14,562 nucleotides of DNA from a virus (lineage: Duplodnaviria; Heunggongvirae; Uroviricota; Caudoviricetes): positions 1 to 14,562 of the IMG/VR virus record IMGVR_UViG_2695420651_000023; one strand, written 5' to 3'. Position 1 is the stretch's first letter. Each line of letters starts with the position of its first letter. The notes under the pieces were generated by a model. The model was not told the origin of the DNA. It was given only the letters and a program-made list of their open reading frames with translations, and did not search any database. Position numbers and translations under genes: made by a program. This document shows positions 1 through 14,562 of the stretch, piece by piece.

Positions 1-23
1 GGCAGAAGCAGAAAAAGCTTATT

Positions 24-701
24 ATGCTTCCATCAGAAACGATGATCTGGCAGCCTGAGTTCACAGATAAAACACTCTCCAGGAAAACCGGGGCGGTTCA
101 TTTTGCTGCTCTACTTCCGGGGTTTTTGGCACTCAATAATTCTGTATGGGCAAGTGATTTGCCTGGTATGACTCTTAATGAACATGATTTAGTGATAGCC
201 CCACTTAACACCGAAGTTCCATTCTACATTGCAGGGCATCGCAGTCATAGCTCCCATCGGAGCCATAGTTCTCACCGTTCATCATCAGGTGGCGGGTACT
301 ATGGTGGCAGCACTCCCTATTATCCAAAAACATACAGCTCACCAAGTTCATCTGGGTCTTCAAGTTCAGGAACAAGTCCCTCATCGTCCTCTTCCTCTGT
401 GCGTTCGCTTCGTTCTAACGACAATAACAACTCTACTACTACGAATTCTGTTGGAACTACAGAAGCTAACCGTGCAAGTAATGGGCTGACTTCTGGTACA
501 GAGAAGCGTAAGCGCTTAATCATGCGGGTTCAATTCGCTTTGCTGGACAAAGATTATTACAACGGGAATATTGACGGCATAATGGGGCCTTCCACAAGGC
601 AGTCAATAAAAAATTATCGCATTGCGAACGGACTACCAGTGCCCTCAAGTGAAACCTTGGATATACAGTTGTTAAATTCATTAAGTATTTTAGCTCGATA
701 A
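24..701 (+). CDS. secreted His-Xaa-Ser-repeat protein with Ser-rich linker and C-terminal peptidoglycan-binding (PG_binding_1-like) domain
   Basis: N-terminal hydrophobic stretch AVHFAALLPGFLALNNSVWA followed by SD (signal-peptide-like, AXA-type site). Repeat HRSHSSHRSHSSHRSSS. Long S/T/G/N-rich low-complexity linker. C-terminus DGIMGPSTRQSIKNYRIANGLPV resembles PG-binding domain. Reading frame is open upstream to the window edge, so the true start could be 24, 42, or outside the window. Confidence 0.6.
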   Translation: MLPSETMIWQPEFTDKTLSRKTGAVHFAALLPGFLALNNSVWASDLPGMTLNEHDLVIAPLNTEVPFYIAGHRSHSSHRSHSSHRSSSGGGYYGGSTPYYPKTYSSPSSSGSSSSGTSPSSSSSSVRSLRSNDNNNSTTTNSVGTTEANRASNGLTSGTEKRKRLIMRVQFALLDKDYYNGNIDGIMGPSTRQSIKNYRIANGLPVPSSETLDIQLLNSLSILAR

Positions 702-769
702 ATTAAGTATATTAAAAATTTTTCACTTTAACATTAACTTGTATGAATATATATTTCAGAGGCGATTAA

Positions 770-2581
770 ATGTCAGTCAGCTATAACATATATAGAATGC
801 CATATAAGAGTCTTCCAGAATTGACAAAAAAAATCATTAAAGAAGGGCTTGTCGAACAAAAAACTATTCTACATCAATCTTATCAACTCAAATTTTATTT
901 TTCTGATAAATTAAAAGGAAATGAAGTATGGTGGTGGGATGTTTTTAGTGATTTCTTCAATGAAGAAATTGAAAAGCCTCATAATATATTCTATTTTGGC
1001 CTGCTAATAGGATTTAAAGAAAAGGACCCTGAGAATTGCTATCTTATCAGTCTTGGTAAATCACATTTTTATCTCAGCAAGTTTATTGAAGCAGACTTTG
1101 GGCTGAATGTGGCAATGCGTATAGCTAATGATGAAAATATTTTACTCAAGAAAAGCAGATTCTTTTGTGGGGGAAAGAGTCAGGAGGCATCCTCATACTC
1201 ACAGTTTGTTCAAGGAGCATATTTTCCTGGCGAATCCATCGAGCATCTCAAAACAAAAGCCAAAGAAACTGACAAGTGGGGATGTAATAATATAACTTTT
1301 TCTGATTCAATTCAGCTAAGTTTGGATGGTGCTCCTACTGCATTAGTCGATGTTTTCAATGATATTGATTCTTCGTTGGCAACCAAAGAGAAAATCGAAT
1401 TTCCTAAATCGGAAAAAATCACTGACGAGTCAAAGATAGATGAGCTTGATAATTGTCTACTTCAATCGATCATTACAGATGATGCAAAAGTTATTATTGA
1501 TGAGATTCAATCTTTTGGTGCCTCTATTGTAATTAATAATTCTTTGACATTTTTTAAATTGCACACAAAAGTTGAGGGGAGTGGAAAGTATCTTCAATCA
1601 TCAGATAAAATTAATGACATAAAAATAGCAGATGTAAAGAAATTCATAAAAAATAACAACATAAAAGATGTCAATAAAGTTTTTGTTAAGATAACTAATG
1701 AAAATAACAGTGGTCATACAGCCTCGTTAAAAGAAATATTGAGCATTACTTATAGCGAGGGCAGCGAGCACTTCTTCCTTAAGAGGGGAGGATGGAGTCG
1801 ATTTAACTCTGCTTTTATGAAGTATTTGTCTACTTCTTTAGCCAGTATAAAATTTGAGGTTAAAGATGCTCTTAAGGAAGACGACTTCAAAGTATGGCAA
1901 GCTGAAAAAATAAAACAAATCGCAGAAGGAACTTCTAAAGACAAATTAGAATATAGAGAATATTATTTTAATGAAAAGATGTCTGATGAGAAAGGTTATA
2001 TACTTCTAGATCGCCAGCTAAAAAAAATACCATCCTTACGTGATAATGGCAAGGACTACAATGTTGAAGTTGCAGATCTTTATAAAAATGGAGAGATTAT
2101 TGCTGTAAAGATATCAGATAAACCGCATGATCTAATTTATAATATTGAACAGTCAAAAACCACAATTCAAACTATAGTAAGAGGAGTAGTAAAATTTGAA
2201 GAGACAATTACTGATGTGGTTTTATGGATCTCAACTACTACAAAAGCTAAAAAATTAATTGACATCAATTCTATTCAATTTTTATTAGCGGTTCAAACTT
2301 GGAAGGAAGTTGTTGAAGGATTTAATCTGAAACCAAAGATATATTATTCACATCACGATAAACCCCAAAAGAAAAAGGGAAAGAAAAAAACGCATCTTAA
2401 ATCTGAACTTAGAATTGGTTATGGAGAAAGATATCAGGTTATAGCGTCTCAGTATCGCTCCAATATTTGTGTGGATTATGTATCACCGATACTACCAAAA
2501 TTATTATGTTTTAGGTATGGTGATTTACCGCCATACCTCTTTTGTATTTATCTCGCAATGATGTTGTTTACTTTTGTTTAA
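770..2581 (+). CDS. hypothetical protein, 603 aa, AT-rich orphan; candidate defence/abortive-infection protein
   Basis: Long uninterrupted ORF with SD GAGG 7 nt before the ATG. K/N/I-rich composition and very low GC. No TM segments and no catalytic motif (Walker A, HNH, RT YxDD) recognisable by eye. Confidence 0.7.
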   Translation: MSVSYNIYRMPYKSLPELTKKIIKEGLVEQKTILHQSYQLKFYFSDKLKGNEVWWWDVFSDFFNEEIEKPHNIFYFGLLIGFKEKDPENCYLISLGKSHFYLSKFIEADFGLNVAMRIANDENILLKKSRFFCGGKSQEASSYSQFVQGAYFPGESIEHLKTKAKETDKWGCNNITFSDSIQLSLDGAPTALVDVFNDIDSSLATKEKIEFPKSEKITDESKIDELDNCLLQSIITDDAKVIIDEIQSFGASIVINNSLTFFKLHTKVEGSGKYLQSSDKINDIKIADVKKFIKNNNIKDVNKVFVKITNENNSGHTASLKEILSITYSEGSEHFFLKRGGWSRFNSAFMKYLSTSLASIKFEVKDALKEDDFKVWQAEKIKQIAEGTSKDKLEYREYYFNEKMSDEKGYILLDRQLKKIPSLRDNGKDYNVEVADLYKNGEIIAVKISDKPHDLIYNIEQSKTTIQTIVRGVVKFEETITDVVLWISTTTKAKKLIDINSIQFLLAVQTWKEVVEGFNLKPKIYYSHHDKPQKKKGKKKTHLKSELRIGYGERYQVIASQYRSNICVDYVSPILPKLLCFRYGDLPPYLFCIYLAMMLFTFV

Positions 2582-2984
2582 GTCTTCTAAGCTTCATACT
2601 TTCTAATGAGAATAATAATAGAGTTGTGCTGTATATAAAACCAGAGTTAGTTAATAACTTTAAATTTAATGCTTCAGGATTTTCACTGAGAAAATGAAAG
2701 GCATAAACTAAGTATACAGCTAAAGCAGCCGTTCCAATTGTTGGTCCAATATCGCCTTGATCATGAGGTTCAAGGTTTACATTGAATTTAAAGATTAGCC
2801 ATTCAAATCCCCAAGTAAAAAAAACAACTAATATCATGGCTGCGAATAATTTCGCGATGTTATCTGCTGATGGATTCATCAGAACAGATTGTTTCTGAAA
2901 AAATTCACAAAGTGAGAGTCCGAAAAAAATAAAAAAAAGTGGTCTGGAACTAAATTTTTCAAAAACTTTGAATAGGGTTTCCAT
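2568..2984 (-). CDS. small integral membrane protein, 138 aa, about 4 predicted TM helices
   Basis: Four hydrophobic stretches (LFFIFFGLSLCEFF, AAMILVVFFTWGFEWLIF, IGTAALAVYLVYAFHFL, IYSTTLLLFSL). Starts 38 bp downstream of the int stop on the same strand. Its 3' end overlaps the convergent 603-aa gene by 14 bp. Confidence 0.55.
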   Translation of the reverse strand: METLFKVFEKFSSRPLFFIFFGLSLCEFFQKQSVLMNPSADNIAKLFAAMILVVFFTWGFEWLIFKFNVNLEPHDQGDIGPTIGTAALAVYLVYAFHFLSENPEALNLKLLTNSGFIYSTTLLLFSLESMKLRRLKQK

Positions 2985-3022
2985 TTTCTTTACCTTCAGG
3001 ATTATATTAGCTATTCTGATAC

Positions 3023-4252
3023 TTAGGCTACCAGAGCATTTGATCTTTGAGCTTGAACGTAATCACTCCACCATTGCATCAAACTCTGTCGCTCTATCAG
3101 ATATTCTGCACGATTGTATGCTGCGATAATTTCATCTTTTTTCGAGTGGGCAAGCGCTGCCTCAAGAACTTCAGCTCTGAATTTACCAGACTCCTCTGCC
3201 GCTGTTCGCGCAATAGAACGCATACCGTGAGCTACAAGCTCGCCTCCGAACCCCATTCGGATGATAGCTGCGTTGGCTGTTTGTTCATGCATATGATTAA
3301 GAGGCGCTTTAATGCTGGGGAAAACCCATTCTCTATGCCCACTTATTGATTTCATTAATTCAAGGATGCGCAAAGCTTCTTTACTCAAAGGAACTTTGTG
3401 AGGCTTTTTCATTTTCATGAAATCAGCAGGAATGTTCCAAATGCTGTTGGTTGTATCAATATCAGACCATCTTGCGCGAACGGCTTCACCCGGACGAACC
3501 CATGTCAACAATTGCCATTCAATTAGCATACGTGTTTCCAACCGGATTGACGCATTCGTCAAAGATTCCATAAACCTTGGCAATTCGCTTGGGGGAAGGG
3601 CAGGCATATTTTGCTTTTTTGGTTTACTGAATCTTTGACCAAGGTTGTCAGCCGGGTTGAACTCAATAAGTTCTTCAGTAGCTGCCCACCTGAAGATTTC
3701 ATTCAGACGTGAAATGATACGGCGTAGAGTTTCCAATACGCCTCGTTGCTTAATAGGATCAAGGTGTTGTTTTAAGAGCTTAGGCCGGATCTCATTGATA
3801 GGGACATTACCCAGACCAGGAAAGACATTTCTCTCTAAGCTGCGCCAGATGTCTGCTGCATGGTCTTGTGAGATACCTGATGTCTTTACCTTCTCATCTA
3901 ACCATTTCCGCGCTACGGCTTGGAGAGTGTGCTCAGTAGCACTCTTTAATGCCTTCGCCTTATCGTTGTTATGGATTTGTGGATCAACACCATTTGCCAG
4001 AAAGGAAAGATATTCATCACGTAAGGCTCTGGCTCTTGCCAGTGTAAGGTGAGGATAGGTCCCAAGGCTCATTTTGGTTCTTTTTTTACTCACTGGCACT
4101 GCATACCTGAAATACCAATTCTTCTTTCCTCCTTTCGAGAGGGGAGCGATTCGTAGTATCAAACCATCTCCGTCAAACAAGTTGATTTCTTTGTCGGCTG
4201 GCTTGGTGCTTTTGATTTCAGTGTCAGTGAGCTTCTTAGCGATTTTTGCCAT
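3023..4252 (-). CDS. int: tyrosine recombinase, P4-family integrase (N-terminal arm-binding domain)
   Basis: N-terminus MAKIAKKLTDTEIKSTKPADKEINLFDGDGLILRI...WYFRY is typical of P4/CP4-57 IntA-type integrases. Start moved from 4294 to the ATG at 4252, which has SD GAGGG 7 nt upstream. C-terminal catalytic region contains R...H..R and a Tyr-containing segment. Confidence 0.9.
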   Translation of the reverse strand: MAKIAKKLTDTEIKSTKPADKEINLFDGDGLILRIAPLSKGGKKNWYFRYAVPVSKKRTKMSLGTYPHLTLARARALRDEYLSFLANGVDPQIHNNDKAKALKSATEHTLQAVARKWLDEKVKTSGISQDHAADIWRSLERNVFPGLGNVPINEIRPKLLKQHLDPIKQRGVLETLRRIISRLNEIFRWAATEELIEFNPADNLGQRFSKPKKQNMPALPPSELPRFMESLTNASIRLETRMLIEWQLLTWVRPGEAVRARWSDIDTTNSIWNIPADFMKMKKPHKVPLSKEALRILELMKSISGHREWVFPSIKAPLNHMHEQTANAAIIRMGFGGELVAHGMRSIARTAAEESGKFRAEVLEAALAHSKKDEIIAAYNRAEYLIERQSLMQWWSDYVQAQRSNALVA

Positions 4253-4349
4253 TTTGGGACCCTCGGTTTTTGGACCCTTCTTAGTGGGTCTCATTCAGGG
4301 TGCCATAACTCGTAGTTCTCAGCAATTCTCACTGGACGACAATAGACGT

Positions 4350-4381
4350 AAAAAAGCCCGCAGAGCTTGTGCTGTGCGGGC
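4350..4381 (-). terminator. rho-independent terminator on the minus strand, between the ssrA fragment and int
   Basis: Plus strand reads AAAAAA + GCCCGCAGAGC + TTGT + GCTGTGCGGGC (11-bp stem, one mismatch). On the minus strand this is hairpin followed by TTTTTT. Confidence 0.5.
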
Positions 4382-4417
4382 TTAGTAGACTTCATTGTAC
4401 TTCAAACAACTAAAAAG

Positions 4418-4464
4418 TGGTGGAGCTGGCGGGAGTTGAACCCGCGTCCGAAATTCCTACATAC
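4418..4464 (-). repeat. ssrA: 3'-terminal ~47 nt of ssrA (tmRNA), att core repeat; not a complete tmRNA gene
   Basis: Reverse complement reads ATGTAGGAATTTCGGACGCGGGTTCAACTCCCGCCAGCTCCACCA, the acceptor/T-arm end of enterobacterial tmRNA as I recall it. Sequence further upstream (4465 onward) is unrelated to tmRNA. Confidence 0.8.
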
Positions 4465-4612
4465 CATTTTTACCATAACAAAAACATTAAGTTTCGTTTA
4501 AAATCAGTCTGTTATTGTTATTTTGTGTTTGTCCGTTTTACGCTTTTTTAATGTTCTGCCGCCAAAATGCCGCCACATTGTAGGTATTAAGTCTGCTATT
4601 TATCACCTGTTG

Positions 4613-5509
4613 TTAAGACACGCGGGCATCGTACCCATACAAGTCTTGAAAGCATGAGTAAAACAATTCTTGATTGTTGAGTTCGCCCTTTGTTTCCGGT
4701 ATTTCACTCTGTAGAAAATTTTTATTAATTGTCCACTCAATAGCTAAAGTATTAGTGTAGTTTGTTGAACTACTAATTTTAGCATTATTAGGATGAAAAA
4801 GTTGCTGTATAAATTCAATATCTGAATCAAGTGAAATAAAATGTATGTTTGCATTATCTTTTAATCTATCATCAAATCTAAGTTGGATAGTGGTTTTGTA
4901 ATGATTAAAATCAGCAATTGGGTTATAAGATGAAAAATTTTTACTTTTAAATTTTAATATCTTCTCAGCTCGTTGGCTTCCAAAGATATACATCAGAGCT
5001 ACAATTGTAAACGGTTGGTTTTTAAATTCATTAAACTCGTTTACTATCTCTTTAAACTCATAATATGTATTCTCTCGTTGTTCTACTTTCTTTGTTTCCC
5101 CTATTTTTTCTTGTAGCTTATCAAGGAATTTTGTTTTTTTATCTATTAATCTGTCAGTTTCTTTTTCATATATTATTTTTGATAGTTTATTTACATTGGA
5201 TGTTAGGAAATCATAATCAGTGTTAGCTTCTTTAATAAATGATTTTACAATTTCACTATCCTCTATAATTAATTTTCTTATTTTTTTATTAGGTGTTTTT
5301 ATGATTTCTAATTTGCCGTTACTGTCAAGTTTTTTATGGGTTTTTCCTTCTATTATTGATAGTAAAGGTGAGAAAGTATTTCCTTTGATATCTAATGCTT
5401 TTAATTTATTAAGCATATCAATTCTATTAGGTTCTGGGATATTAGAAGAATTGTTGTGCTTATTCATTAGATCAATTATGTTTCGATCTAAAAGGTAGAG
5501 CTCTGTCAT
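4613..5509 (-). CDS. hypothetical protein, 298 aa, AT-rich moron between prophage int and att
   Basis: ORF begins 12 bp downstream of the int stop on the same strand. K/N/I/E-rich, very low GC. No TM segments or recognisable motifs. Confidence 0.7.
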   Translation of the reverse strand: MTELYLLDRNIIDLMNKHNNSSNIPEPNRIDMLNKLKALDIKGNTFSPLLSIIEGKTHKKLDSNGKLEIIKTPNKKIRKLIIEDSEIVKSFIKEANTDYDFLTSNVNKLSKIIYEKETDRLIDKKTKFLDKLQEKIGETKKVEQRENTYYEFKEIVNEFNEFKNQPFTIVALMYIFGSQRAEKILKFKSKNFSSYNPIADFNHYKTTIQLRFDDRLKDNANIHFISLDSDIEFIQQLFHPNNAKISSSTNYTNTLAIEWTINKNFLQSEIPETKGELNNQELFYSCFQDLYGYDARVS

Positions 5510-5521
5510 AATAATTACCTT

Positions 5522-6547
5522 TTAATTAGTAGAAAAAAGAGTGGCTAAAGGATTTTTTGTCACCGCATCTTCAAGATGCTCTGGTGCGAAATGAGCATAA
5601 ATCATGGTCATTTTTATATCGGTATGGCCTAAAATTTCTTTAAGCACAAGTATATTACCGCCATTCATCATAAAGTGGCTGGCGAATGTATGGCGTAGCA
5701 CGTGGGTGCATTGTCCTTCTGGCAGTTCGATACCGGCCCGCTTTACTGCCCGCTCAAAGGCTTTTCTGCATGGTGTGAATAATTTCCCTCTATTTTTGGG
5801 AAGTTCGTCATACAGATCCTGAGATATTGGCACGGTACGGTTTTTCTTGCCCTTCGTCTTGGTGTATGTGATGCGGTATTTTGACAACTGGTGTCCCTGC
5901 AGATTTTCTGCTTCACTCCAGCGTGCTCCGGTGGCCAGGCATATTTTTGCAATCATCAGCAGGCTGGGGCTTTGAGAATCTGCGCAGGCATCCAACAGGC
6001 GCTTGATTTCGTCCATGGAAAGAAAGGCCAGCTCACCTTCAGCAATTTTAAATGTAGGAAGTCCTGCCAGTGGGTTTGGTGCTGACCAGTGTCCCAGCTT
6101 TTTCAGTGTGCCAAAAACCGATGACAGGTTGCGTTGTTCAAGATTTACCGTGCGGGGCTTAACAGGCGACATAAGCGCGCCATCTTCATTTCGCACTTCA
6201 CCCTTTAGCCGTGCTTCCCGGTATTTCGTAAAATCACCGGCGGTCAGTTCTGAAGCGATGGGATCGCCCAGACCATTACAGATAATTTTAAGTTTCGCCA
6301 TCAGGCGTTTGGGGTCAGCAAGCGTCTGCCCGTAAAGTGAGTACCATTGTTCAATCACTTCTGACAAATGTCGCCGATCTTCCTTTTCCCCCAGCCACGG
6401 TTTTTTGTTCACTTCTTCCATTGTGAAACGTTCAAACGCAATGGCTTCGCCTTTTGTCGCAAATTGTTTACGTACGCGTTTGCCATCTCGCCCGTTTGGG
6501 TAGCATTCACACAACCACTTTCCGTTCGGCTGTTTTCTGATCGTCAT
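5522..6547 (-). CDS. int: tyrosine integrase, P2/186 family
   Basis: N-terminus MTIRKQPNGKWLCECYPNGRDGKRVRKQFATKGEAIAFE resembles P2 Int. C-terminal HVLRHTFAS...GH...IYAH catalytic box. Start lies 2 bp after the cI stop. Confidence 0.9.
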   Translation of the reverse strand: MTIRKQPNGKWLCECYPNGRDGKRVRKQFATKGEAIAFERFTMEEVNKKPWLGEKEDRRHLSEVIEQWYSLYGQTLADPKRLMAKLKIICNGLGDPIASELTAGDFTKYREARLKGEVRNEDGALMSPVKPRTVNLEQRNLSSVFGTLKKLGHWSAPNPLAGLPTFKIAEGELAFLSMDEIKRLLDACADSQSPSLLMIAKICLATGARWSEAENLQGHQLSKYRITYTKTKGKKNRTVPISQDLYDELPKNRGKLFTPCRKAFERAVKRAGIELPEGQCTHVLRHTFASHFMMNGGNILVLKEILGHTDIKMTMIYAHFAPEHLEDAVTKNPLATLFSTN

Positions 6548-6549
6548 TA

Positions 6550-7182
6550 TTAGATGCTCTTAATCACTTTTACCACACGCCCTACAACGGCTACGTCATC
6601 AACTGCACATTCAAAGGTTGTTTCTTCCTGATGAACAACAAGCTTATTTCCGGGAATTCGAGCTACTTTTACGATGCTTTTCACTCCATCAATATCAACA
6701 AGCCAAGAGCCATTACTGATCTGTTTTACAGATACATCAACAATAAAACTTTCTGTTGTCGTTTGTATGAATAGATAGTTTGACGAATCGCCCTCAACCA
6801 ACCTGCTATCTAATAAAATTTCGTCATATGATTGAAGTTCACCATTTCTTAATTCTGTGTATTTGATACTGGGAGCTACGATTTTAGAAAGTGGTCTAAT
6901 TGTGACGTCATTATCATTTTTGAGAATGTTTGAGTCACAGTTATCTGCATACATATCACCCTGTCCGGTTGCCAACCAAAGAAGCGAGATCCCGGTTTCT
7001 AGAGCACATTGAATTACCCACTCTGCTGGAAAGCTATCTCTTAAGTATCTGTTTGCCATGGTGCTTTTAGATACTTTTAAGTGTTCGCAGAGTTGTTGGC
7101 GTGAGCTGAAATTGTAGGCTTTTATCAGCCTGTTGATGGCATCACGCCCCCCACTATCGTTTCCACCCTTGATTAGACTCAT
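6550..7182 (-). CDS. cI: CI-type immunity repressor (186-like), N-terminal HTH
   Basis: Start moved from 7314 to the ATG at 7182 (MSLIKGGN...), which has a G-rich SD. HTH-like segment QQLCEHLKVSKSTMANRYL. Sits immediately upstream of int and divergent from the apl-like gene. Confidence 0.75.
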   Translation of the reverse strand: MSLIKGGNDSGGRDAINRLIKAYNFSSRQQLCEHLKVSKSTMANRYLRDSFPAEWVIQCALETGISLLWLATGQGDMYADNCDSNILKNDNDVTIRPLSKIVAPSIKYTELRNGELQSYDEILLDSRLVEGDSSNYLFIQTTTESFIVDVSVKQISNGSWLVDIDGVKSIVKVARIPGNKLVVHQEETTFECAVDDVAVVGRVVKVIKSI

Positions 7183-7300
7183 AATCAAACCCCCCCTGAC
7201 GCATATAAAATGAGATCTTAATATCCATTCATGGTTTGAAAAGCAAAACCAAACCACATAAAACGAGATGATACGATTACAAACTAAGAGATACTGCACT
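7183..7300. promoter_or_regulatory. lysis/lysogeny switch region between cI and the apl-like gene (promoters and operators)
   Basis: 118-bp AT-rich divergent intergenic region. Inverted repeat TGGTTT-N8-AAACCA at 7232..7251. TTGAAA hexamer at 7236..7241. Confidence 0.4.
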
Positions 7301-7549
7301 ATGAGCAACGACATTTCAATTCGTGTACCAAAAGTGATGGCGACACCAGCTGAGTTCGCGGAATGGGAAGGCCGCTCTCGCGGTTCGGTATATCAAATGA
7401 TTCATAATGGAAAACTCGCTAAATTCTTGGAAAGAAAAGAAAAACCGAAAGACAGAGTATGTATACGTTACCTTGAGTACAAAAAGGAACAAGTCAGGAA
7501 AAACATGGGCCAATCCAATTTCAACTTTAATGTCATCGTTGGTGACTAA
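7301..7549 (+). CDS. Apl/Cox-like small HTH protein (excisionase/transcriptional repressor)
   Basis: 82 aa; HTH-like segment ATPAEFAEWEGRSRGSVYQMIHNGKL. First rightward gene opposite cI. Start choice (7301 versus 7268 or 7337) is uncertain. Confidence 0.55.
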   Translation: MSNDISIRVPKVMATPAEFAEWEGRSRGSVYQMIHNGKLAKFLERKEKPKDRVCIRYLEYKKEQVRKNMGQSNFNFNVIVGD

Positions 7550-7581
7550 GTTCAATTATGAGAACTTTCTAAGGGGGCAGC

Positions 7582-8091
7582 ATGTTTGATTACAAGATTT
7601 CCAAACATCCGCATTTTGATGAAGCCTGTAGAGCTTTTGCACTACGTCACAATATGGCGAAGCTGGCAGAACGTGCAGGAATGAATGTTCAGACACTGCG
7701 AAACAAACTCAACCCAGATCAACCGCATCAGCTCACCGCATCAGAAATCTGGCTGCTTACCGATCTGACTGAAGATTCAACGCTGGTAGATGGTTTTCTG
7801 GCACAGATTCACTGCCTGCCATGTGTACCGATTAATGAGGTAGCAAAAGAGAAACTGCCGCATTACGTCATGAGTGCAACCGCAGAGATCGGGCGTGTTG
7901 CTGCAGGTGCGGTATCTGGCGATGTAAAAACCAGTGCAGGTCGTCGTGATGCTATCAGCAGCATTAACTCTGTAACACGACTGATGGCGCTGGCTGCTGT
8001 TTCATTGCAGGCCCGTTTACAGGCTAACCCTGCGATGGCGAGTGCAGTTGATACCGTGACTGGCCTCGGTGCTTCATTCGGATTGCTGTGA
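7582..8091 (+). CDS. cII: CII-like regulatory protein (186 CP76 family)
   Basis: 169 aa, the same length as 186 CII as I recall it. Sits immediately after the apl-like gene with a G-rich SD. Confidence 0.55.
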   Translation: MFDYKISKHPHFDEACRAFALRHNMAKLAERAGMNVQTLRNKLNPDQPHQLTASEIWLLTDLTEDSTLVDGFLAQIHCLPCVPINEVAKEKLPHYVMSATAEIGRVAAGAVSGDVKTSAGRRDAISSINSVTRLMALAAVSLQARLQANPAMASAVDTVTGLGASFGLL

Positions 8092-8265
8092 GGTGCTTAT
8101 GCTGACGAAAGAACCATCATTTGCATCGCTGCTGGTAAAACAAAGTCCGGCAATGCACTACGGTCACGGCTGGATCATGGGTGAGGATGGTAAACGCTGG
8201 CATCCATGTCATTCACAAGATGAATTGCTGTCTGAATTGACCACGAGGAAACGGAGAAAGTCAAA

Positions 8266-8490
8266 ATGTATGCAGCGGAAAGTGAAGTGGTTTATCAGTT
8301 TCGTTACAGAGGGGAGAGTTATTCAGTACCTGAAGATGATTTGCTCTGTTGTTATCCGTCGTTGTCGGGCGATGGCAGTTACTTTTTCACGCTAAAGGAT
8401 GGGACGTTTTTACGGGGAGAGCAGGTTAAAGAGACGATACGAAAAAATGTATCTCCTCTTGAACGTTACCGTAAGAACAAAGAACGATAG
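8266..8490 (+). CDS. hypothetical early protein, 74 aa
   Basis: Good SD (GGAG, about 9-nt spacer). Protein-like composition. Overlaps an alternative ORF at 8099..8395 in another frame. Confidence 0.45.
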   Translation: MYAAESEVVYQFRYRGESYSVPEDDLLCCYPSLSGDGSYFFTLKDGTFLRGEQVKETIRKNVSPLERYRKNKER

Positions 8491-8512
8491 TTGCGTTTTG
8501 GGGATATGAATT

Positions 8513-8854
8513 ATGGCAATTAATGGCGCTGCGGCGACTGTTCCATTAAGCCCCGGTGAACGCCTGAATGGACTTAATCATATTGCGGAATTAAGGGCGA
8601 AAGTTTTTGGCCTGAATATTGAGTCAGAGCTTGAGCGGTTTATTAAAGATATGCGTGATCCACGGGATATCAATAATGAACAAAATAAACGGGCACTGGC
8701 TGCTATATTCTTTATGGCAAAAATTCCAGCTGAACGTCATAGCATCAGCATTAATGAGCTGACCACTGACGAAAAGCGGGAGCTGATTAAAGCAATGAAT
8801 CATTTTCGTGCGGTGGTGAGCTTATTTCCCAGACGGCTAACCATGCCGAATTAA
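8513..8854 (+). CDS. hypothetical phage early protein, 113 aa
   Basis: ATG with GGGGA SD. Balanced composition. Sits in the early operon. Confidence 0.55.
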   Translation: MAINGAAATVPLSPGERLNGLNHIAELRAKVFGLNIESELERFIKDMRDPRDINNEQNKRALAAIFFMAKIPAERHSISINELTTDEKRELIKAMNHFRAVVSLFPRRLTMPN

Positions 8855-8921
8855 CCAACTAATGAAATTAATGGCGTAAACCCGCCGGGCATCCCTTTAT
8901 CTAAATTCAGGAGAATTGATT

Positions 8922-9155
8922 ATGCGTAATATTGAAATCCTCACGACTAAAACCGGACCGGATGATGCAGGGCTTAATATTTTACTGACAGAGGCTCGTC
9001 TGGAAGAACGCCGGGCAAGGGCTGAAGCAATGGCAGCTCGCCTTGATAGCCTGGCGTGTCATATCTCATCCCGTCAGCTAAACCACGTGGAAGCGGCAGA
9101 ACTGCTGCGTGTGACTGCTGAAGCAATCCAGAACGAAGCGCAGGAGATCCACTAA
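8922..9155 (+). CDS. hypothetical phage early protein, 77 aa
   Basis: Start taken at the ATG at 8922 (SD CAGGAG, 8-nt spacer) rather than the TTG at 8916. Stop overlaps the next gene's start (TAATG). Confidence 0.55.
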   Translation: MRNIEILTTKTGPDDAGLNILLTEARLEERRARAEAMAARLDSLACHISSRQLNHVEAAELLRVTAEAIQNEAQEIH

Positions 9156-9382
9156 TGGCTGATGCAATGGATCTCGTACAGCAGCGCGTTGAAGAAGAAC
9201 GCCAGCGCTATATCCGTGCTGCCCGTGCCAAAACACCGGGCGTGTCTCGTGTGCTTTGTATTGAATGTGAAGCGCCAATTCCGCCAGCACGACGCCGCGC
9301 CATTCCTGGAGTGCAGCTTTGCATTACCTGTCAGGAAATCGCAGAGCTGAAAGGCAAACATTACAACGGAGGTGTTGTATGA
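9155..9382 (+). CDS. TraR/DksA-family C4 zinc-finger protein
   Basis: CIECEAPIPPARRRAIPGVQLCITC gives Cys-x2-Cys-x17-Cys-x2-Cys. Translationally coupled to both neighbours. Confidence 0.75.
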   Translation: MADAMDLVQQRVEEERQRYIRAARAKTPGVSRVLCIECEAPIPPARRRAIPGVQLCITCQEIAELKGKHYNGGVV

Positions 9383-10236
9383 GTACCATCCTGAAATGGG
9401 CGGGAAATAAAACCGCCATTATGTCCGAACTGAAAAAACATCTTCCTGCTGGCCCGCGACTGGTTGAACCTTTCGCGGGTTCCTGTGCTGTGATGATGGA
9501 GACGGATTACCCCAGCTATCTTGTTGCGGATATTAATCCTGATTTAATCAACCTCTATAAAAAGGTTGCTGCTGATTGCGAGGCGTTTATATCTCGTGCC
9601 AGAGCTTTATTTGAGGAAGCAAACAGGGAGGTGGCTTATTACAACATAAGGCAGGAGTTTAATTACTCCACTGAAATTACTGATTTCATGAAAGCGGTAT
9701 ATTTCCTGTATCTCAATCGTCATGGTTACCGTGGGTTATGTCGCTATAACAAGAGCGGGCATTTCAACATTCCGTACGGTAATTATAAAAATCCGTATTT
9801 CCCTGAAAAAGAAATTCGCGCATTTGCAGAGAAAGCCCAGCGGGCAACGTTTATCTGCGCCAGCTTTGATGAAACGCTGGCGATGTTGAAGGCGGGGGAT
9901 GTGGTGTATTGCGATCCGCCTTATGACGGTATGTTTTCCGGCTATCACACTGACGGCTTCACTGAAGATGACCAGTATCACCTGGCATCCGTTCTTGAAC
10001 ATCGGTCATCAGAAGGACATCCGGTCATTGTTTCTAACAGTGACACATCCCTGATCCGTTCGCTGTATCGCAATTTTACTCACCACTACATCAAGGCAAA
10101 ACGCAGCATCGGCGTGGCAGCTGGTGAGAGTAAATCTGCAACAGAAATCATCGCTGTTTCCGGGCCGCGCTGCTGGGTAGGATTTGATCCTTCGCGTGGC
10201 GTGGATTGTTCCGTCGTGTACGGAGTGCGTGCATGA
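9379..10236 (+). CDS. dam: DNA adenine methyltransferase (Dam-like, N6-adenine, GATC-type)
   Basis: Strong similarity to E. coli Dam as I recall it: [37 protein letters not shown] (motif IV DPPY). Start at 9379 (SD GGAGGTG) overlaps the upstream stop (ATGA). Confidence 0.9.
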
Positions 10237-12647
10237 GCCATGCTGATATGAACAACTGCAGCGGCTTTAACGAGTTCGCCGCAGCATTCTCATGGAACAG
10301 CCCGAAAAAGGCCATTAACCCTTATCTGGACCCGGCGGAAGTTGCGCCGGTTTCTGCGCTTTCAAACCTGATCACTCTGTACGCTGCCGATAACGAGCAG
10401 GAACAACTGCGCCGCGAGGCACTGAGTGATCAGGTCTGGGAGCGTTATTTCTTTAATGAATCCCGTGATCCTGTCCAGCGCGAAATGGAACAGGATAAGC
10501 TCATTAGTCGGGCAAAGCTGGCGCATGAGCAGCAGCGTTTTAATCCGGATATGGTCATTCTGGCGGACGTCAACGCCCAGCCTTCCCATATCAGCAAGCC
10601 GCTGATGCAACGTATTGAATACTTCAGCAGCCAGGGCAGGCCAAAGGCTTATTCCCGCTATTTACGTGAGACGATTAAGCCATGTCTGGAACGGCTGGAG
10701 CATGTACGCGACAGTCAGCTATCCACTTCTTTTCGCTTTATGGCAAGCCATGAAGGGCTGGACGGCCTGCTGATTCTGCCTGAAATGAGTCAGGATCAGG
10801 TGAAACGCCTGTCCACCCTTGTTGCTGCGCATATGAGCATGTGCCTTGATGCAGCTTGTGGCGATTTGTATGCCACCGATGACGTTAAGCCAGAAGAAAT
10901 CCGCAAGACATGGGAAAGGGTGGCGGCGGAAACCCTGCGTCTGGATGTCATCCCACCTGCGTTTGAGCAACTCCGCCGGAAAAGAAACCGCCGTAAACCC
11001 GTGCCCTATGAACTCATTCCGGGTTCGCTGGCGCGTATGTTGTGCGCCGACTGGTGGTATCGGAAATTATGGAAGATGCGTTGCGAATGGCGGGAGGAGC
11101 AGTTGCGCGCTGTCTGCCTGGTTAGCAAAAAAGCATCTCCTTATGTCAGCTATGAAGCCGTGATGCATAAACGTGAGCAGCGCCGTAAGTCGCTGGAGTT
11201 TTTCCGTTCTCATGAACTGGTGAACGAAGACGGCGACACGCTGGACATGGAGGATGTGGTAAACGCCAGCAGCAGCAACCCTGCGCATCGCCGCAATGAG
11301 ATGATGGCCTGTGTTAAAGGTCTGGAGCTTATCGCGGAAATGCGCGGTGACTGCGCCGTTTTCTACACCATCACCTGTCCGTCACGTTTCCATTCCACGC
11401 TAAATAACGGCAGGCCCAACCCAACCTGGACAAATGCGACGGTAAGACAAAGTAGTGATTATCTGGTCGGCATGTTTGCTGCATTTCGTAAGGCGATGCA
11501 CAAAGCCGGATTGCGCTGGTATGGCGTGCGGGTGGCTGAGCCGCATCATGACGGTACAGTTCACTGGCACCTGTTGTGTTTTATGCGCAAAAAAGACCGC
11601 CGCGCCATCACTGCATTACTGCGTAAGTTTGCCATCCGTGAAGACCGCGATGAGCTGGGCAATAACACTGGGCCGCGCTTTAAGTCTGAGTTGATTAACC
11701 CGCGCAAAGGTACGCCAACAAGCTACATCGCGAAATACATCAGTAAGAACATTGACGGGCGTGGTCTGACTGGCGAGATCAGCAAGGAAACGGGGAAATC
11801 CCTGCGTGATAATGCTGAATACGTTAATGCCTGGGCGTCTCTGCATCGTGTTCAGCAATTCCGCTTCTTTGGCATTCCGGGGCGTCAGGCTTACCGTGAA
11901 CTGCGATTGCTGGCTGGTCAGGCGGCAAGGCAACAGGGGGACAAAAAAGCAGGTGCGCCGGTACTGGATAACCCGCGCCTTGATGCAATCCTGGCTGCTG
12001 CTGATGCTGGTTGTTTTGCCACCTACATCATGAAGCAGGGCGGCGTACTGGTTCCCCGCAAATATCACCTGATCAGAACCGCTTATGAAATCAACGAAGA
12101 GCCGACCGCCTATGGCGATCACGGCATTCGTATTTATGGCATCTGGTCACCCATTGCAGAGGGCAAGATCTGCACTCATGCGGTGAAGTGGAAAATGGTT
12201 CGTAAGGCCGTTGACGTTCAGGAGGCGGCAGCCGACCAGGGCGCTTGCGCCCCTTGGACTCGTGGCAATAACTGTCCCCTTGCTGAAAATTTGAACCAAC
12301 AAGGGAAAGACAAATCAGCTGATGGGGATACCAGAACGGAAATCACCCGCATGGATGACAAGGAATTGCACGATTACCTGCACAGTATGAGCAAAAAAGA
12401 GCGCCGGGAACTGGCAGCAAGGTTACGCCTGGTTAAACCGAAACGGCGTAAAGACTACAAACAGCGAATTACAGATCATCAGCGACAGCAGCTCGTCTAT
12501 GAACTGAAGTCCAGAGGATTTGATGGCAGCGAGAAAGAGGTCGATTTACTCCTTCGCGGCGGCAGTATTCCGTCAGGAGCAGGCCTGCGTATCTTCTATC
12601 GGAACCAGCGTCTGCAGGAGGATGATAAATGGCGGAACCTGTATTAA
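10233..12647 (+). CDS. replication initiation endonuclease, P2/186 gene A family (rolling-circle, HUH-type)
   Basis: HUH-like motif [13 protein letters not shown] and twin-tyrosine motif [10 protein letters not shown] (phiX174 gpA / P2 A type YxxKY). Start at 10233 overlaps the dam stop (ATGA). 804 aa. Confidence 0.85.
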
Positions 12648-12741
12648 TTACGCAGGTTAACAATTCGTGCTCTTAATAATACCAGGCATATCAGGCTGAT
12701 GAGCGTAAAAAAACGTTTTACATCAGTAAGATTATTATATG

Positions 12742-12757
12742 CTGTAAATATAAACAG
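12742..12757. promoter_or_regulatory. LexA (SOS) box upstream of the tum/dinI-like operon
   Basis: CTGTAAATATAAACAG matches the CTGT-N8-ACAG consensus. Lies 43 bp upstream of the ATG at 12800, with a TATACA -10-like hexamer just downstream. Confidence 0.6.
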
Positions 12758-12799
12758 TGGTTATGTATACAGTGTTGCTTTGGTGTCATAGGAGGAAAG

Positions 12800-12988
12800 A
12801 TGCAGGACTATTTTTTGGAGTCTTTGAAGCTCCAGCGCATTGATTTTTTTCTTAAGCTTGTAGCGGCTAGTGAGTGTAGTGATGAAGAGAAGGGGCTGGC
12901 CCTGCAGTGGGTTTCTGAACTGACAGATGAACTCATGGCAAAAATCAGAACCCACGAATACAACCGCTCAATGGATGTCATCAGCTGA
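12800..12988 (+). CDS. small SOS-operon protein, 62 aa; candidate Tum-like antirepressor (N-terminal part)
   Basis: AGGAGG SD 6 nt upstream. First gene after the LexA box. Position corresponds to 186 tum. Confidence 0.5.
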   Translation: MQDYFLESLKLQRIDFFLKLVAASECSDEEKGLALQWVSELTDELMAKIRTHEYNRSMDVIS

Positions 12989-12998
12989 GGTGACTTTT

Positions 12999-13232
12999 AT
13001 GCGCATTGAAATAATGATCGATAAAGAGCAGAAGATTAGCCAGTCTACCCTGGACGCTCTGGAGTCAGAGCTTTACCGCAACCTGCAACCCATCTATCCC
13101 AAGACAGCTATCCGCATCCGTAAAGGGTCGGCAAACGGCGTTGAGCTGAGTGGCTTAAAGCTTGATGAAGACAAAAAGCGGGTGATGGAAATTATGCAGC
13201 AGGTTTGGGAAGACGACAGCTGGCTGCACTAA
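12999..13232 (+). CDS. DinI-family protein, 77 aa
   Basis: MRIEIMIDK...LDALESEL...DEDKKRVMEIMQQVWEDDSW aligns by eye with E. coli DinI (MRIEVTIAK...IDALAGEL...KEDKQRISEILQETWESADDW). Start at the ATG at 12999 with SD GAGGTG. Confidence 0.8.
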   Translation: MRIEIMIDKEQKISQSTLDALESELYRNLQPIYPKTAIRIRKGSANGVELSGLKLDEDKKRVMEIMQQVWEDDSWLH

Positions 13233-13305
13233 GGAACGTTCCTGATGTAAGAACTTGATTCTGACGTCAGCAAGGTTGAACAACGAGAGTAGCGAGGCGT
13301 TAGCC

Positions 13306-13566
13306 ATGGGTAAAAAAGACAGTAATCACCAGATTATTTATCGGGGCCAGGTGCTGGAACGGTTTACCCCTGGCGGCTGGGTCTTCTTTCAACGCCCAAA
13401 GGAGTGTGGCGGAGGTTTTTGGTTGGGCCGCACCTATGAAGACTGCTTCTGGCTTGAGCTGGAATTCCCCGTTTCGCTATATGACGGCCTGGAGTTTTTG
13501 ATGGAAGTCACCAGGGTAGAGCAGAGAAGTGATGAGGTTGACGCGAATTATTCCCTGTTTGATTAA
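13306..13566 (+). CDS. hypothetical protein, 86 aa
   Basis: ATG at 13306 with GAGG SD; the track's upstream extension uses a TTG start. No recognisable motifs. Confidence 0.5.
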   Translation: MGKKDSNHQIIYRGQVLERFTPGGWVFFQRPKECGGGFWLGRTYEDCFWLELEFPVSLYDGLEFLMEVTRVEQRSDEVDANYSLFD

Positions 13567-13585
13567 AAATGTATTAGCTTATAAT
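13559..13585 (+). promoter_or_regulatory. sigma70-like promoter for the 203-aa gene
   Basis: -35 TTGATT (13559..13564), 15-bp spacer, perfect -10 TATAAT (13580..13585), about 30 bp upstream of the ATG at 13615. Confidence 0.45.
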
Positions 13586-13614
13586 GGAATACTATTTTTG
13601 CAGGTGGGGGCGCA

Positions 13615-14226
13615 ATGGATTTAGTCTTTAAAATTCTGGCTTCGTTGGGTGGGGTGTCTTTTGTTGCATCTGGCATATTTGTTTGGATCGGGAAAGTTTA
13701 TTTAGAAAGATATAAGTCGCGGCTAAACAAAGATATTGCTGAATTTCAATCACAACTGAGTGCAACTAATGAAAGAATAAAGGCTAAGTTAGACAATTCT
13801 GTTTATGTAACGAAAGCGTATTTTGATAAGGAGTTATCAGCATATAGTCTCATTTGGAATTCGATGTTTGAAACCAGAGAAAGCGTGCTTAAGCTGAGGC
13901 CTGCGCTGGATCATTTTGACCCCAACGAACCATTTGAAGAGAGAAAATTTAGAAGGTTGAAAGTTTTTTTCGATGCATTTAATACTTTTGTTACAAGTGT
14001 TGAGTCTAACAAACCGTTCATCTCACCAGAGGTTTATATAATCTTGGACCGTTTCCGGAAGGAATGCCTTTCAGAGTCAATATCGTTTCAGCATGGCGAT
14101 CCAGAATTTGACTGGCAAAATTATTGGAAAGAGGCAGAGTTGAACCGTACAACCATCACCAAGCTTTTTGATGAGACGTGTGATGCAATTCGAGACAGGA
14201 TGCACACATTAACTGTGGTTACGTAG
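13615..14226 (+). CDS. membrane-anchored hypothetical protein, 203 aa (single N-terminal TM helix); candidate defence moron
   Basis: N-terminal hydrophobic helix ILASLGGVSFVASGIFVWIG, then a charged/coiled-coil-like region. Own promoter and strong SD AGGTGGGGG. Lower GC than the phage core. Confidence 0.7.
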   Translation: MDLVFKILASLGGVSFVASGIFVWIGKVYLERYKSRLNKDIAEFQSQLSATNERIKAKLDNSVYVTKAYFDKELSAYSLIWNSMFETRESVLKLRPALDHFDPNEPFEERKFRRLKVFFDAFNTFVTSVESNKPFISPEVYIILDRFRKECLSESISFQHGDPEFDWQNYWKEAELNRTTITKLFDETCDAIRDRMHTLTVVT

Positions 14227-14317
14227 TTTTCCAAAAAGTCTCGATGCCCGCTTTGGCGATTGTGCATGTCTATGCCGCATGAATCCGCATGATCGTTTGA
14301 GGATCGTTTTAGCTGAG

Positions 14318-14341
14318 GCCCGCTAGGAATGGCGGGCTTTT
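14318..14341 (+). terminator. rho-independent terminator
   Basis: GCCCGC + 8-nt loop TAGGAATG + GCGGGC, followed by TTTT. Confidence 0.55.
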
Positions 14342-14386
14342 GCTTATGTCATGCAGGCGCATGAAAACCACTACATAAAGCGGGCA

Positions 14387-14405
14387 GGCGTGGCGGGGAT
14401 ACGAG
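14387..14405. other. cos-like site (P2/186-type cohesive end)
   Basis: GGCGTGGCGGGGATACGAG resembles the 19-nt P2/186 cohesive end (GGCG[A/T]GGCGGGGA...) as recalled from memory. Position between the early region and the expected late genes fits the P2 map. Confidence 0.35.
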
Positions 14406-14562
14406 CGCGCGCTCATGGTTGAATTAATGAAATTATGGTGTTAAATAGGCTAGCTTTTGGTGATGCTGCCAACTTACTGATTTAGTGTATGATGGTGTTT
14501 TTGAGGTGCTCCAGTGGCTTCTGTTTCTATCAGCTGTCCCTCCTGTTCAGCTACTGACGGGG

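Follow-up and report, generated by a model that had tools for sequence, protein, structure and literature searches.

An hxsA gene with an IS629-derived 5' end that is probably a recent, non-functional remnant of the HXS anti-phage defence system

We analysed a stretch of 14,562 nucleotides (positions 1 to 14,562 of IMG/VR virus record IMGVR_UViG_2695420651_000023, hereafter the window) and found that the open reading frame (ORF) near its left end is hxsA with its native 5' end replaced by the end of an IS629 element; hxsA encodes the effector of the HXS (His-Xaa-Ser) anti-phage system hxsD-hxsB-hxsC-hxsA. The same allele closes a complete hxsDBCA operon in sister strains, and in E. coli O55:H7 DEC5E, which has the identical junction, the upstream genes are deleted. 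We consider it probable that the copy in the window is a leftover of a known defence system, recently orphaned and no longer functional: hxsA has most likely lost its function, and hxsD, hxsB and hxsC are most likely gone from the window's own genome. The protein family, the system and the insertion sequence (IS)-mediated decay are all of known kinds.

The HXS operon was described as an anti-phage defence system by Li et al. (Nat Commun 2026, PMC13128918), who reported that, of 113 coliphages tested, it restricts 110, with neither abortive infection nor a block to adsorption, that it blocks phage DNA entry, with entry of T7 DNA being delayed, and that all four hxs genes are needed for defence. 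HxsA carries a signal peptide (residues 1-22), five HxS repeats and a peptidoglycan-binding domain; replacement of the signal peptide or mutation of the peptidoglycan-binding domain abolishes defence, residues 23-47 are required, with the mature protein beginning near residue 48, and residues 114-139 are dispensable (PMC13128918). HxsB, HxsC and HxsD must be present for processing of the N-terminus, for a +8 Da modification of the SHRSS motif and for periplasmic accumulation, and when hxsB, hxsC or hxsD is mutated, HxsA is left unprocessed and does not build up in the periplasm (PMC13128918). Likewise, truncated HxsA targeted by Sec or Tat is inactive without the other Hxs proteins, and HxsA expressed alone forms inclusion bodies, with no phenotype and no export (PMC13128918). 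Periplasmic HxsA binds DNA, the block probably operating via electrostatic DNA binding, and 99.8% of surveyed HXS systems carry all four genes (PMC13128918).

Profile searches placed the ORF product in NCBIfam TIGR03979 'His-Xaa-Ser repeat protein HxsA', an equivalog model, with 151.9 bits against a cutoff of 121.65 and with residues 27-223 aligned to profile positions 6-189 of 190. The Pfam PG_binding_1 match (PF01471, residues 169-206, window 528-641) reached 23.6 bits against a gathering score of 23, and the same match is precomputed on most homologues. An earlier note, made from the letters of this DNA and a list of its ORFs, had described a secreted protein with tandem HRS/HSS repeats, a Ser/Thr/Gly/Asn-rich linker and a C-terminus with PG_binding_1 spacing, and had suggested these searches; the ORF, the repeats, the linker and the domain are all present (Table 1). 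Compared with published HxsA (TIGR03979; PMC13128918), the gene shares the five HxS repeats ending in SHRSS-SGGG, the Ser-rich linker, the C-terminal PG_binding_1 domain and the AALLPGFL core of the signal peptide, and it differs in that the IS629 end stands in for its first 14 nt, start codon included, and hxsC is not adjacent.

Table 1. Coordinates of features in the window, with the hxsA region above and the rest of the window below.
Feature	Position	Strand	Remarks
Right end of IS629	1..100	+	Last codons of transposase orfB and right inverted repeat
hxsA ORF as listed	24..701	+	225 aa; residues 1-25 IS629-derived, then hxsA in frame, beginning with native codon 6
Genuine hxsA sequence	101..701	+	Third base of native codon 5 to stop codon 699-701
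Surviving signal peptide, h-region and c-region	102..152	+	FAALLPGFLALNNSVWA; native, with VWA cleavage motif
Pro-region, signal peptide to repeats	153..236	+	SDLPGMTLNEHDLVIAPLNTEVPFYIAG
Five tandem His-Xaa-Ser repeats	237..281	+	HRSHSSHRSHSSHRS; HRS HSS HRS HSS HRS
Ser/Gly/Thr/Asn-rich low-complexity linker, predicted disordered	about 282..485	+	pLDDT <50 over most of aa 82-148
C-terminal peptidoglycan-binding domain	486..698	+	PG_binding_1 three-helix fold; Pfam, AlphaFold2, Foldseek
DUF6119 / TIGR04141 'sporadically distributed' protein gene	770-2581	+	603 aa; directly downstream of hxsA
138-aa ORF	2568-2984	-	Hydrophobic-looking; converges on and overlaps the DUF6119 gene end
Island integrase	3023-4294		423 aa
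ssrA (tmRNA)	4418-4462	-	3' end only, about 45 nt, beside the island integrase
298-aa ORF	4613-5509	-	AT-rich; between prophage end and its integrase
Prophage int	5522-6547		P2/186-like prophage from 4461
Prophage gpA replication endonuclease	10206-12647		
DinI-like (186 Tum-like) ORF	12927-13232	+	PF06183; downstream of prophage gpA
ORF	13255-13566	+	
ORF	13615-14226	+	

In the ORF the repeat array is followed by SS (window 237-287), and its last repeat sits within an SHRSS motif (270-284) that is the site of the published +8 Da, radical-SAM-dependent modification; the array thereby has the form expected of HxsA, four to six copies ending in SHRSS. The pro-region ahead of it is the counterpart of the segment cut off during HxsBCD-dependent N-terminal processing of the published homologue. 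The His-Xaa-Ser columns were nearly invariant in an alignment of 81 homologues, and the number of repeats among 110 full-length homologues was five in 64, six in 30 and four in 11. With a modal number of five, and five or six copies in 94 of the 110, repeat number is not strongly variable among homologues, a comparison that the earlier note had proposed. Tandem Repeats Finder found no DNA-level repeat in window 1-760, because the repeat codons differ and the repetition exists at the protein level only, and slipped-strand length variation of the HxS array or of the linker is therefore unlikely.

The earlier note had also supposed that the low-complexity tract might vary in length between strains. 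Among homologues the Ser-rich linker shows little conservation of either sequence or length, and it does vary between genera, but the length difference within E. coli, where hxsA alleles differ by 18-21 nt, lies elsewhere, and length variability is a minor feature. Native O55:H7 HxsA has 204 aa against 206-212 aa in its closest aligned homologues, and relative to these the O55:H7/O157 allele is without seven residues (ASDSSTG) just after the signal-peptide cleavage site (window 153-170, alignment A1) and not in the Ser-rich tract. The missing residues are apparently one copy of an ASD-containing duplication. This gap falls in residues 23-47 of the published protein, the segment reported as required for defence (PMC13128918); the published experiments were carried out with a different allele, that of E. 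coli strain MEM, and not with the 204-aa O55:H7 allele.

An AlphaFold2 model of the ORF product, built on 81 homologues, had a full-length mean pLDDT of 65 and was confident for the C-terminal domain only (pLDDT >90 over residues 155-225, with helices at 155-175, 189-202 and 214-219), the repeat region being structurally uninformative. The top Foldseek matches to this domain in the PDB were the peptidoglycan-binding domains of the SleB N-domain, SltB3, CtpB and AP3 endolysin; the short length of the domain (about 60 residues) keeps the E-values weak (0.085 and above), and the hits were mutually consistent. The SleB N-domain (6tci) superposed with an rmsd of 1.1 Å over 56 columns, and SleB, SltB3 (5anz) and the phage AP3 endolysin (5nm7) together showed the same three-helix fold at 1.1-2.0 Å over 55-59 columns. 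However, sequence identity to these PG_binding_1 cell-wall enzymes was only 16-26%, and whereas in SleB, SltB3 and AP3 endolysin the domain sits on a hydrolase, in HxsA it is carried by a non-enzymatic repeat effector.

The first 100 bases of the window could be traced to an insertion sequence. Over window 1-3000 the match to E. coli O55:H7 DEC5E is 100%, and window 1-4460 is 99.98% identical to the DEC5E locus (L001 9001-13460), in which an IS3-family transposase CDS ends at window position 58; the orfB stop codon, TGA at 56-58, is in a different frame from the hxsA ORF. The DEC5E element (L001 7791-9100) has the 1310 bp and the terminal TG...CA inverted repeats of IS629, an IS3-family element, and is 100% identical to the annotated IS629 of phage JLK-2012 (JQ347801), with the window holding its last 100 bp only. 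The right inverted repeat of IS629 occupies about 76-100, ending ...GGTTCA, and the reverse complement of window 76-100, TGAACCGCCCCGGTTTTCCTGGAGA, agrees with the IS629 left end in DEC5E, TGAACCGCCCCGGGAATCCTGGAGA. Bases 1-96 match thousands of E. coli records, and 23 other complete genomes match only from base 97/100. IS629 ends at base 100, and genuine hxsA begins at base 101, inside native codon 5. IS629 insertions and IS-mediated deletions are a known trait of the O55:H7/O157:H7 lineage, and IS629 normally duplicates 3-4 bp of its target site and has low target specificity (Rump et al. 2011, PMC3271280). In the literature examined we found no description of an IS629 junction at hxsA codon 5.

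We used the hxsA gene of strain USDA5905 (L002 8991-9605) as the reference for the native gene. It opens with ATG AAA AAA TTT AAT TTT GCT... (written ATGAAAAAATTTAATTTTGCT), its ATG shares bases with the stop codon of hxsC in the sequence ATGA, and its product has the N-terminus MKKFNFAALLPGFLALNNSVWA followed by SD. The first 14 nt, ATGAAAAAATTTAA, are absent from the window; in the ORF, residues MLPSETMIWQPEFTDKTLSRKTGAV and two bases of the next His codon (codon 26) are read from IS629 DNA (window 24..100), and these IS629-derived residues stand in place of native MKKFN. The signal-peptide-like N-terminus that the earlier note had recognised is thus of mixed origin, its hydrophobic core and VWA motif being native and its residues 1-25 coming from IS629. 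The expected cleavage site lies after A43 of the ORF (native A22), and the AALLPGFL motif is conserved across genera. The chimeric N-terminus (...SRKTGAVHFAALLPGFLALNNSVWA) retains positive charges, a hydrophobic core and the cleavage motif, and chimeric HxsA could still be exported if the ORF were translated. Read-through transcription of hxsA from IS629 also appears plausible.

The frame of the hxsA ORF has no stop codon back to the start of the window and in DEC5E is open to 108 nt upstream of it; the caution in the earlier note that the true start might lie upstream applies in that the native start, MKKFN, has been lost and the frame runs open past the window's edge. No Shine-Dalgarno-like sequence was read in the window before the in-frame ATGs at 24, 42 or 168. 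The RefSeq annotation pipeline PGAP calls the CDS from the ATG at 42 (window 42..701; L001 9042-9701 in DEC5E) as a 219-aa 'His-Xaa-Ser repeat protein HxsA' (WP_001419985.1), intact and not a pseudogene, and this CDS overlaps that of the transposase by 17 nt. Since the IS end provides an in-frame open stretch with ATGs at 24 and 42, ORF finders and PGAP alike report an apparently intact gene. The exact protein is carried only by DEC5E and one other strain.

In HXS loci hxsA lies directly behind hxsD and two radical-SAM (rSAM) maturase genes. This arrangement is not found in the window, where IS629 abuts hxsA, and it is found in sister strains and in three other genera. The same hxsA allele follows intact hxsD-hxsB-hxsC, with hxsC overlapping its start, in nine of 11 sister O55:H7/O157 genomes (USDA5905, where hxsDBC occupy NZ_CP039837.1 1301099-1303864, and eight others), and what lies upstream of it in DEC5B and LSU61, the remaining two, are remnants of the hxsDBC operon. 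These two operons were truncated independently: DEC5B carries an IS3-family element of its own and has lost hxsD, hxsB and the 5' part of hxsC, and in LSU61 hxsB is cut off against phage DNA. Furthermore, the order hxsD, rSAM, rSAM, hxsA, with a 4-nt hxsC/hxsA overlap, recurs in Providencia, Vibrio splendidus and Halomonas. The Vibrio splendidus locus has two extra genes in the same orientation after hxsA (L011 6522-8114), encoding a PF27798 'His-Xaa-Ser_sys' protein and a CCP_MauG di-haem peroxidase, and looks like an extended HXS variant unseen in the enterobacterial loci.

Across 5426 complete E. coli genomes, hxsA was present in 155 and hxsDBC in 153; at 99% identity or above the counts were 12 and 11 genomes, respectively, with nine of the 11 hxsDBC hits listed at full coverage. 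Elements of the IS2, IS3, ISSen4 or ISVsa5 type interrupt hxsB or hxsC in at least six further E. coli genomes (H53, H56, H66, H78, H84 and H94). Together with DEC5E, DEC5B and LSU61, these interrupted operons suggest that HXS loci have been lost repeatedly and frequently in E. coli. A search with PADLOC-DB v2 (2023), which holds no Hxs models, gave no hits for HxsA, HxsD or the products of neighbouring genes, and only weak pVip (radical-SAM) matches for HxsB and HxsC. The HxsC protein that represents its 90% identity cluster was only 95% identical to the O55 allele.

DEC5E is the only complete genome with the identical IS629/hxsA junction. Its element is flanked on the left by GTCGATTA (...ATTA) and on the right by TTTTGCT, with no target-site duplication of 3-4 bp at these flanks, which points to deletion or recombination and not to simple insertion. 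The left flank maps to USDA5905 just past ypjA, the ypjA-proximal junction running from GTCGATTA into TGAACCGCC (also given as GTCGATTA into TGAACCGCCCCGGG). The implied loss covers USDA5905 record positions 1283750-1303874, about 20.1 kb replaced by one IS copy, and takes in two recombinase genes, a relaxase gene, an ABC-three-component system, hxsD, hxsB, hxsC and 14 nt of hxsA. The radical-SAM partner that the earlier note had advised seeking in the flanking sequence is therefore to be found in sister genomes, intact in the nine named above, and has been deleted in DEC5E. The partial hxsDBC hits at 99% identity or above are most likely, by elimination, DEC5B and LSU61, and DEC5E would then be without hxsDBC anywhere in its genome. 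The 601 surviving nucleotides of hxsA are 100% identical to those of strains with intact operons, and the event is therefore recent.

The window comes from a relative of DEC5E rather than from DEC5E itself. Identity with DEC5E stops at window 4460, inside the ssrA 3' end, after which comes a P2/186-like prophage that is missing at this DEC5E site and that includes int, a CI-type repressor, CP76, Fil, a Dam methylase and gpA; island and prophage are integrated in tandem at ssrA. No complete E. coli genome covers at least 80% of the window, and a draft contig (GCA_001286625.1 CYGQ01000042.1) that begins inside IS629 is 100% identical to window 37-10701. No RNA gene was detected in the window by ARAGORN or by Rfam at the gathering threshold; positions 4350-4493 gave a partial match to an IsrM-like sRNA.

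Several other regions of the window were noted in passing. The DUF6119 gene downstream of hxsA, which has a promoter-like site ahead of it at 728-755, is intact in the window and in DEC5E and is annotated as frameshifted in USDA5905, DEC5B and LSU61. In strain H6 a TIGR04141 gene follows an hxsA allele of only 77% identity, and none follows hxsA in the O26:H11, Providencia, Vibrio and Halomonas loci; PADLOC gave no match, and the gene may be separate island cargo or a defence gene. The 138-aa ORF had no family match in Pfam, NCBIfam or PADLOC and is hypothetical in all sister genomes. Likewise, the 298-aa ORF had no significant Pfam, NCBIfam or PADLOC match; related prophages elsewhere list other genes, such as gapS1 and one for a PAPS-reductase-domain protein, and this interval may be a hotspot where the P2-like phage carries variable cargo or defence genes. 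The last two ORFs of Table 1 had no family matches, and matches to related prophages end at about 14310-14360 of the window, such that the window end past gpA may be another variable region.

A different history, to which we give a small but real probability, is that IS629 simply inserted into hxsA, that hxsD-hxsB-hxsC still lie upstream in the source genome, and that their loss in DEC5E came later, through an adjacent deletion. The left junction would then be expected to run from ...ATGAAAAAATTTAATTT into TGAACCGCCCCGGG, and the system would be interrupted rather than orphaned, with some activity possible if IS629 read-through expresses chimeric HxsA. This would fit the matching draft contig, which starts inside IS629 with nothing assembled upstream, the P2/186-like prophage at ssrA of the source strain, by which its genome differs from that of DEC5E, and the IS-interrupted but otherwise complete hxs operons of other E. 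coli described above. However, the same junction nucleotide in DEC5E suggests one ancestral event and, together with the low target specificity of IS629, argues for a shared event in the source and DEC5E, and in DEC5E the left flank is deleted. Furthermore, even with hxsDBC kept, hxsA is still without its native start codon, its coupling to hxsC and its signal-peptide n-region, neither the ATG at 24 nor that at 42 has a Shine-Dalgarno-like sequence, and signal-peptide replacement abolished defence in the published system (PMC13128918).

The earlier note had taken the absence of a maturase gene from the 14.5-kb window as the mark of a naturally stand-alone secreted protein, possibly binding metal at the cell wall, and His-rich motifs can indeed chelate metals. 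We regard this as exceedingly improbable, for the IS629 boundary at base 100 explains the missing maturases, the same allele lies within hxsDBCA operons directly downstream of hxsDBC in sister strains, and the protein is an equivalog-level HxsA, a family whose member alone had no phenotype or export and whose systems almost always carry all four genes; the published data point to DNA binding, in a mechanism that does not call for metal (PMC13128918). That the fusion has been exapted, being expressed by orfB read-through and exported unmodified for a new maturase-independent role, is also highly improbable. The ORF is open and in frame, the orfB stop overlaps it, the h-region and VWA cleavage site are preserved, there is no sequence decay and PGAP annotates an intact hxsA; however, a very recent event fits the 100% identity equally, the protein occurs in DEC5E and one other strain only, and in the published system unmodified periplasm-targeted variants gave no defence and HxsA expressed alone formed inclusion bodies (PMC13128918). 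There is, by our estimate, only a very slim chance that the IS629 end has rebuilt a translatable hxsA, with new in-frame start codons and a new, positively charged n-region ahead of the intact hydrophobic core and cleavage site, and that its unmodified orphan product is made by read-through from the transposase gene, is exported to the peptidoglycan and either has some activity independent of maturases or is re-armed in trans by a second hxsBCD.

The reading we prefer, a recent orphan remnant, takes its HXS mechanism from the literature on the system of strain MEM (PMC13128918). When that system is complete, HxsB and HxsC, both radical-SAM enzymes, work with HxsD to process the HxsA N-terminus and to add +8 Da in the last repeat (SHRSS); mature HxsA is exported and held on peptidoglycan by its C-terminal domain, and its basic HxS array hinders the passage of phage DNA through the periplasm. 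At the IS629 junction hxsA has lost its native start codon, its MKKFN n-region and the ATGA overlap by which its translation is coupled to hxsC, and the IS629 end by chance provides two ATGs (24 and 42) in an open stretch that is in frame. Because the native start and n-region are gone and the maturases are probably gone, hxsA in the window should, by the published criteria, be inactive, and this is the most likely state of the copy.

An ORF that resembles a new stand-alone protein, and that PGAP annotates as intact, is thus a known defence effector with an IS-derived 5' end, and censuses of defence systems that count hxsA alone would misscore such strains. The locus is one more case of IS629-driven gene loss in the O55:H7/O157:H7 lineage, and the repeated loss of HXS may have some modest value for studies of what HXS defence costs or how it turns over.
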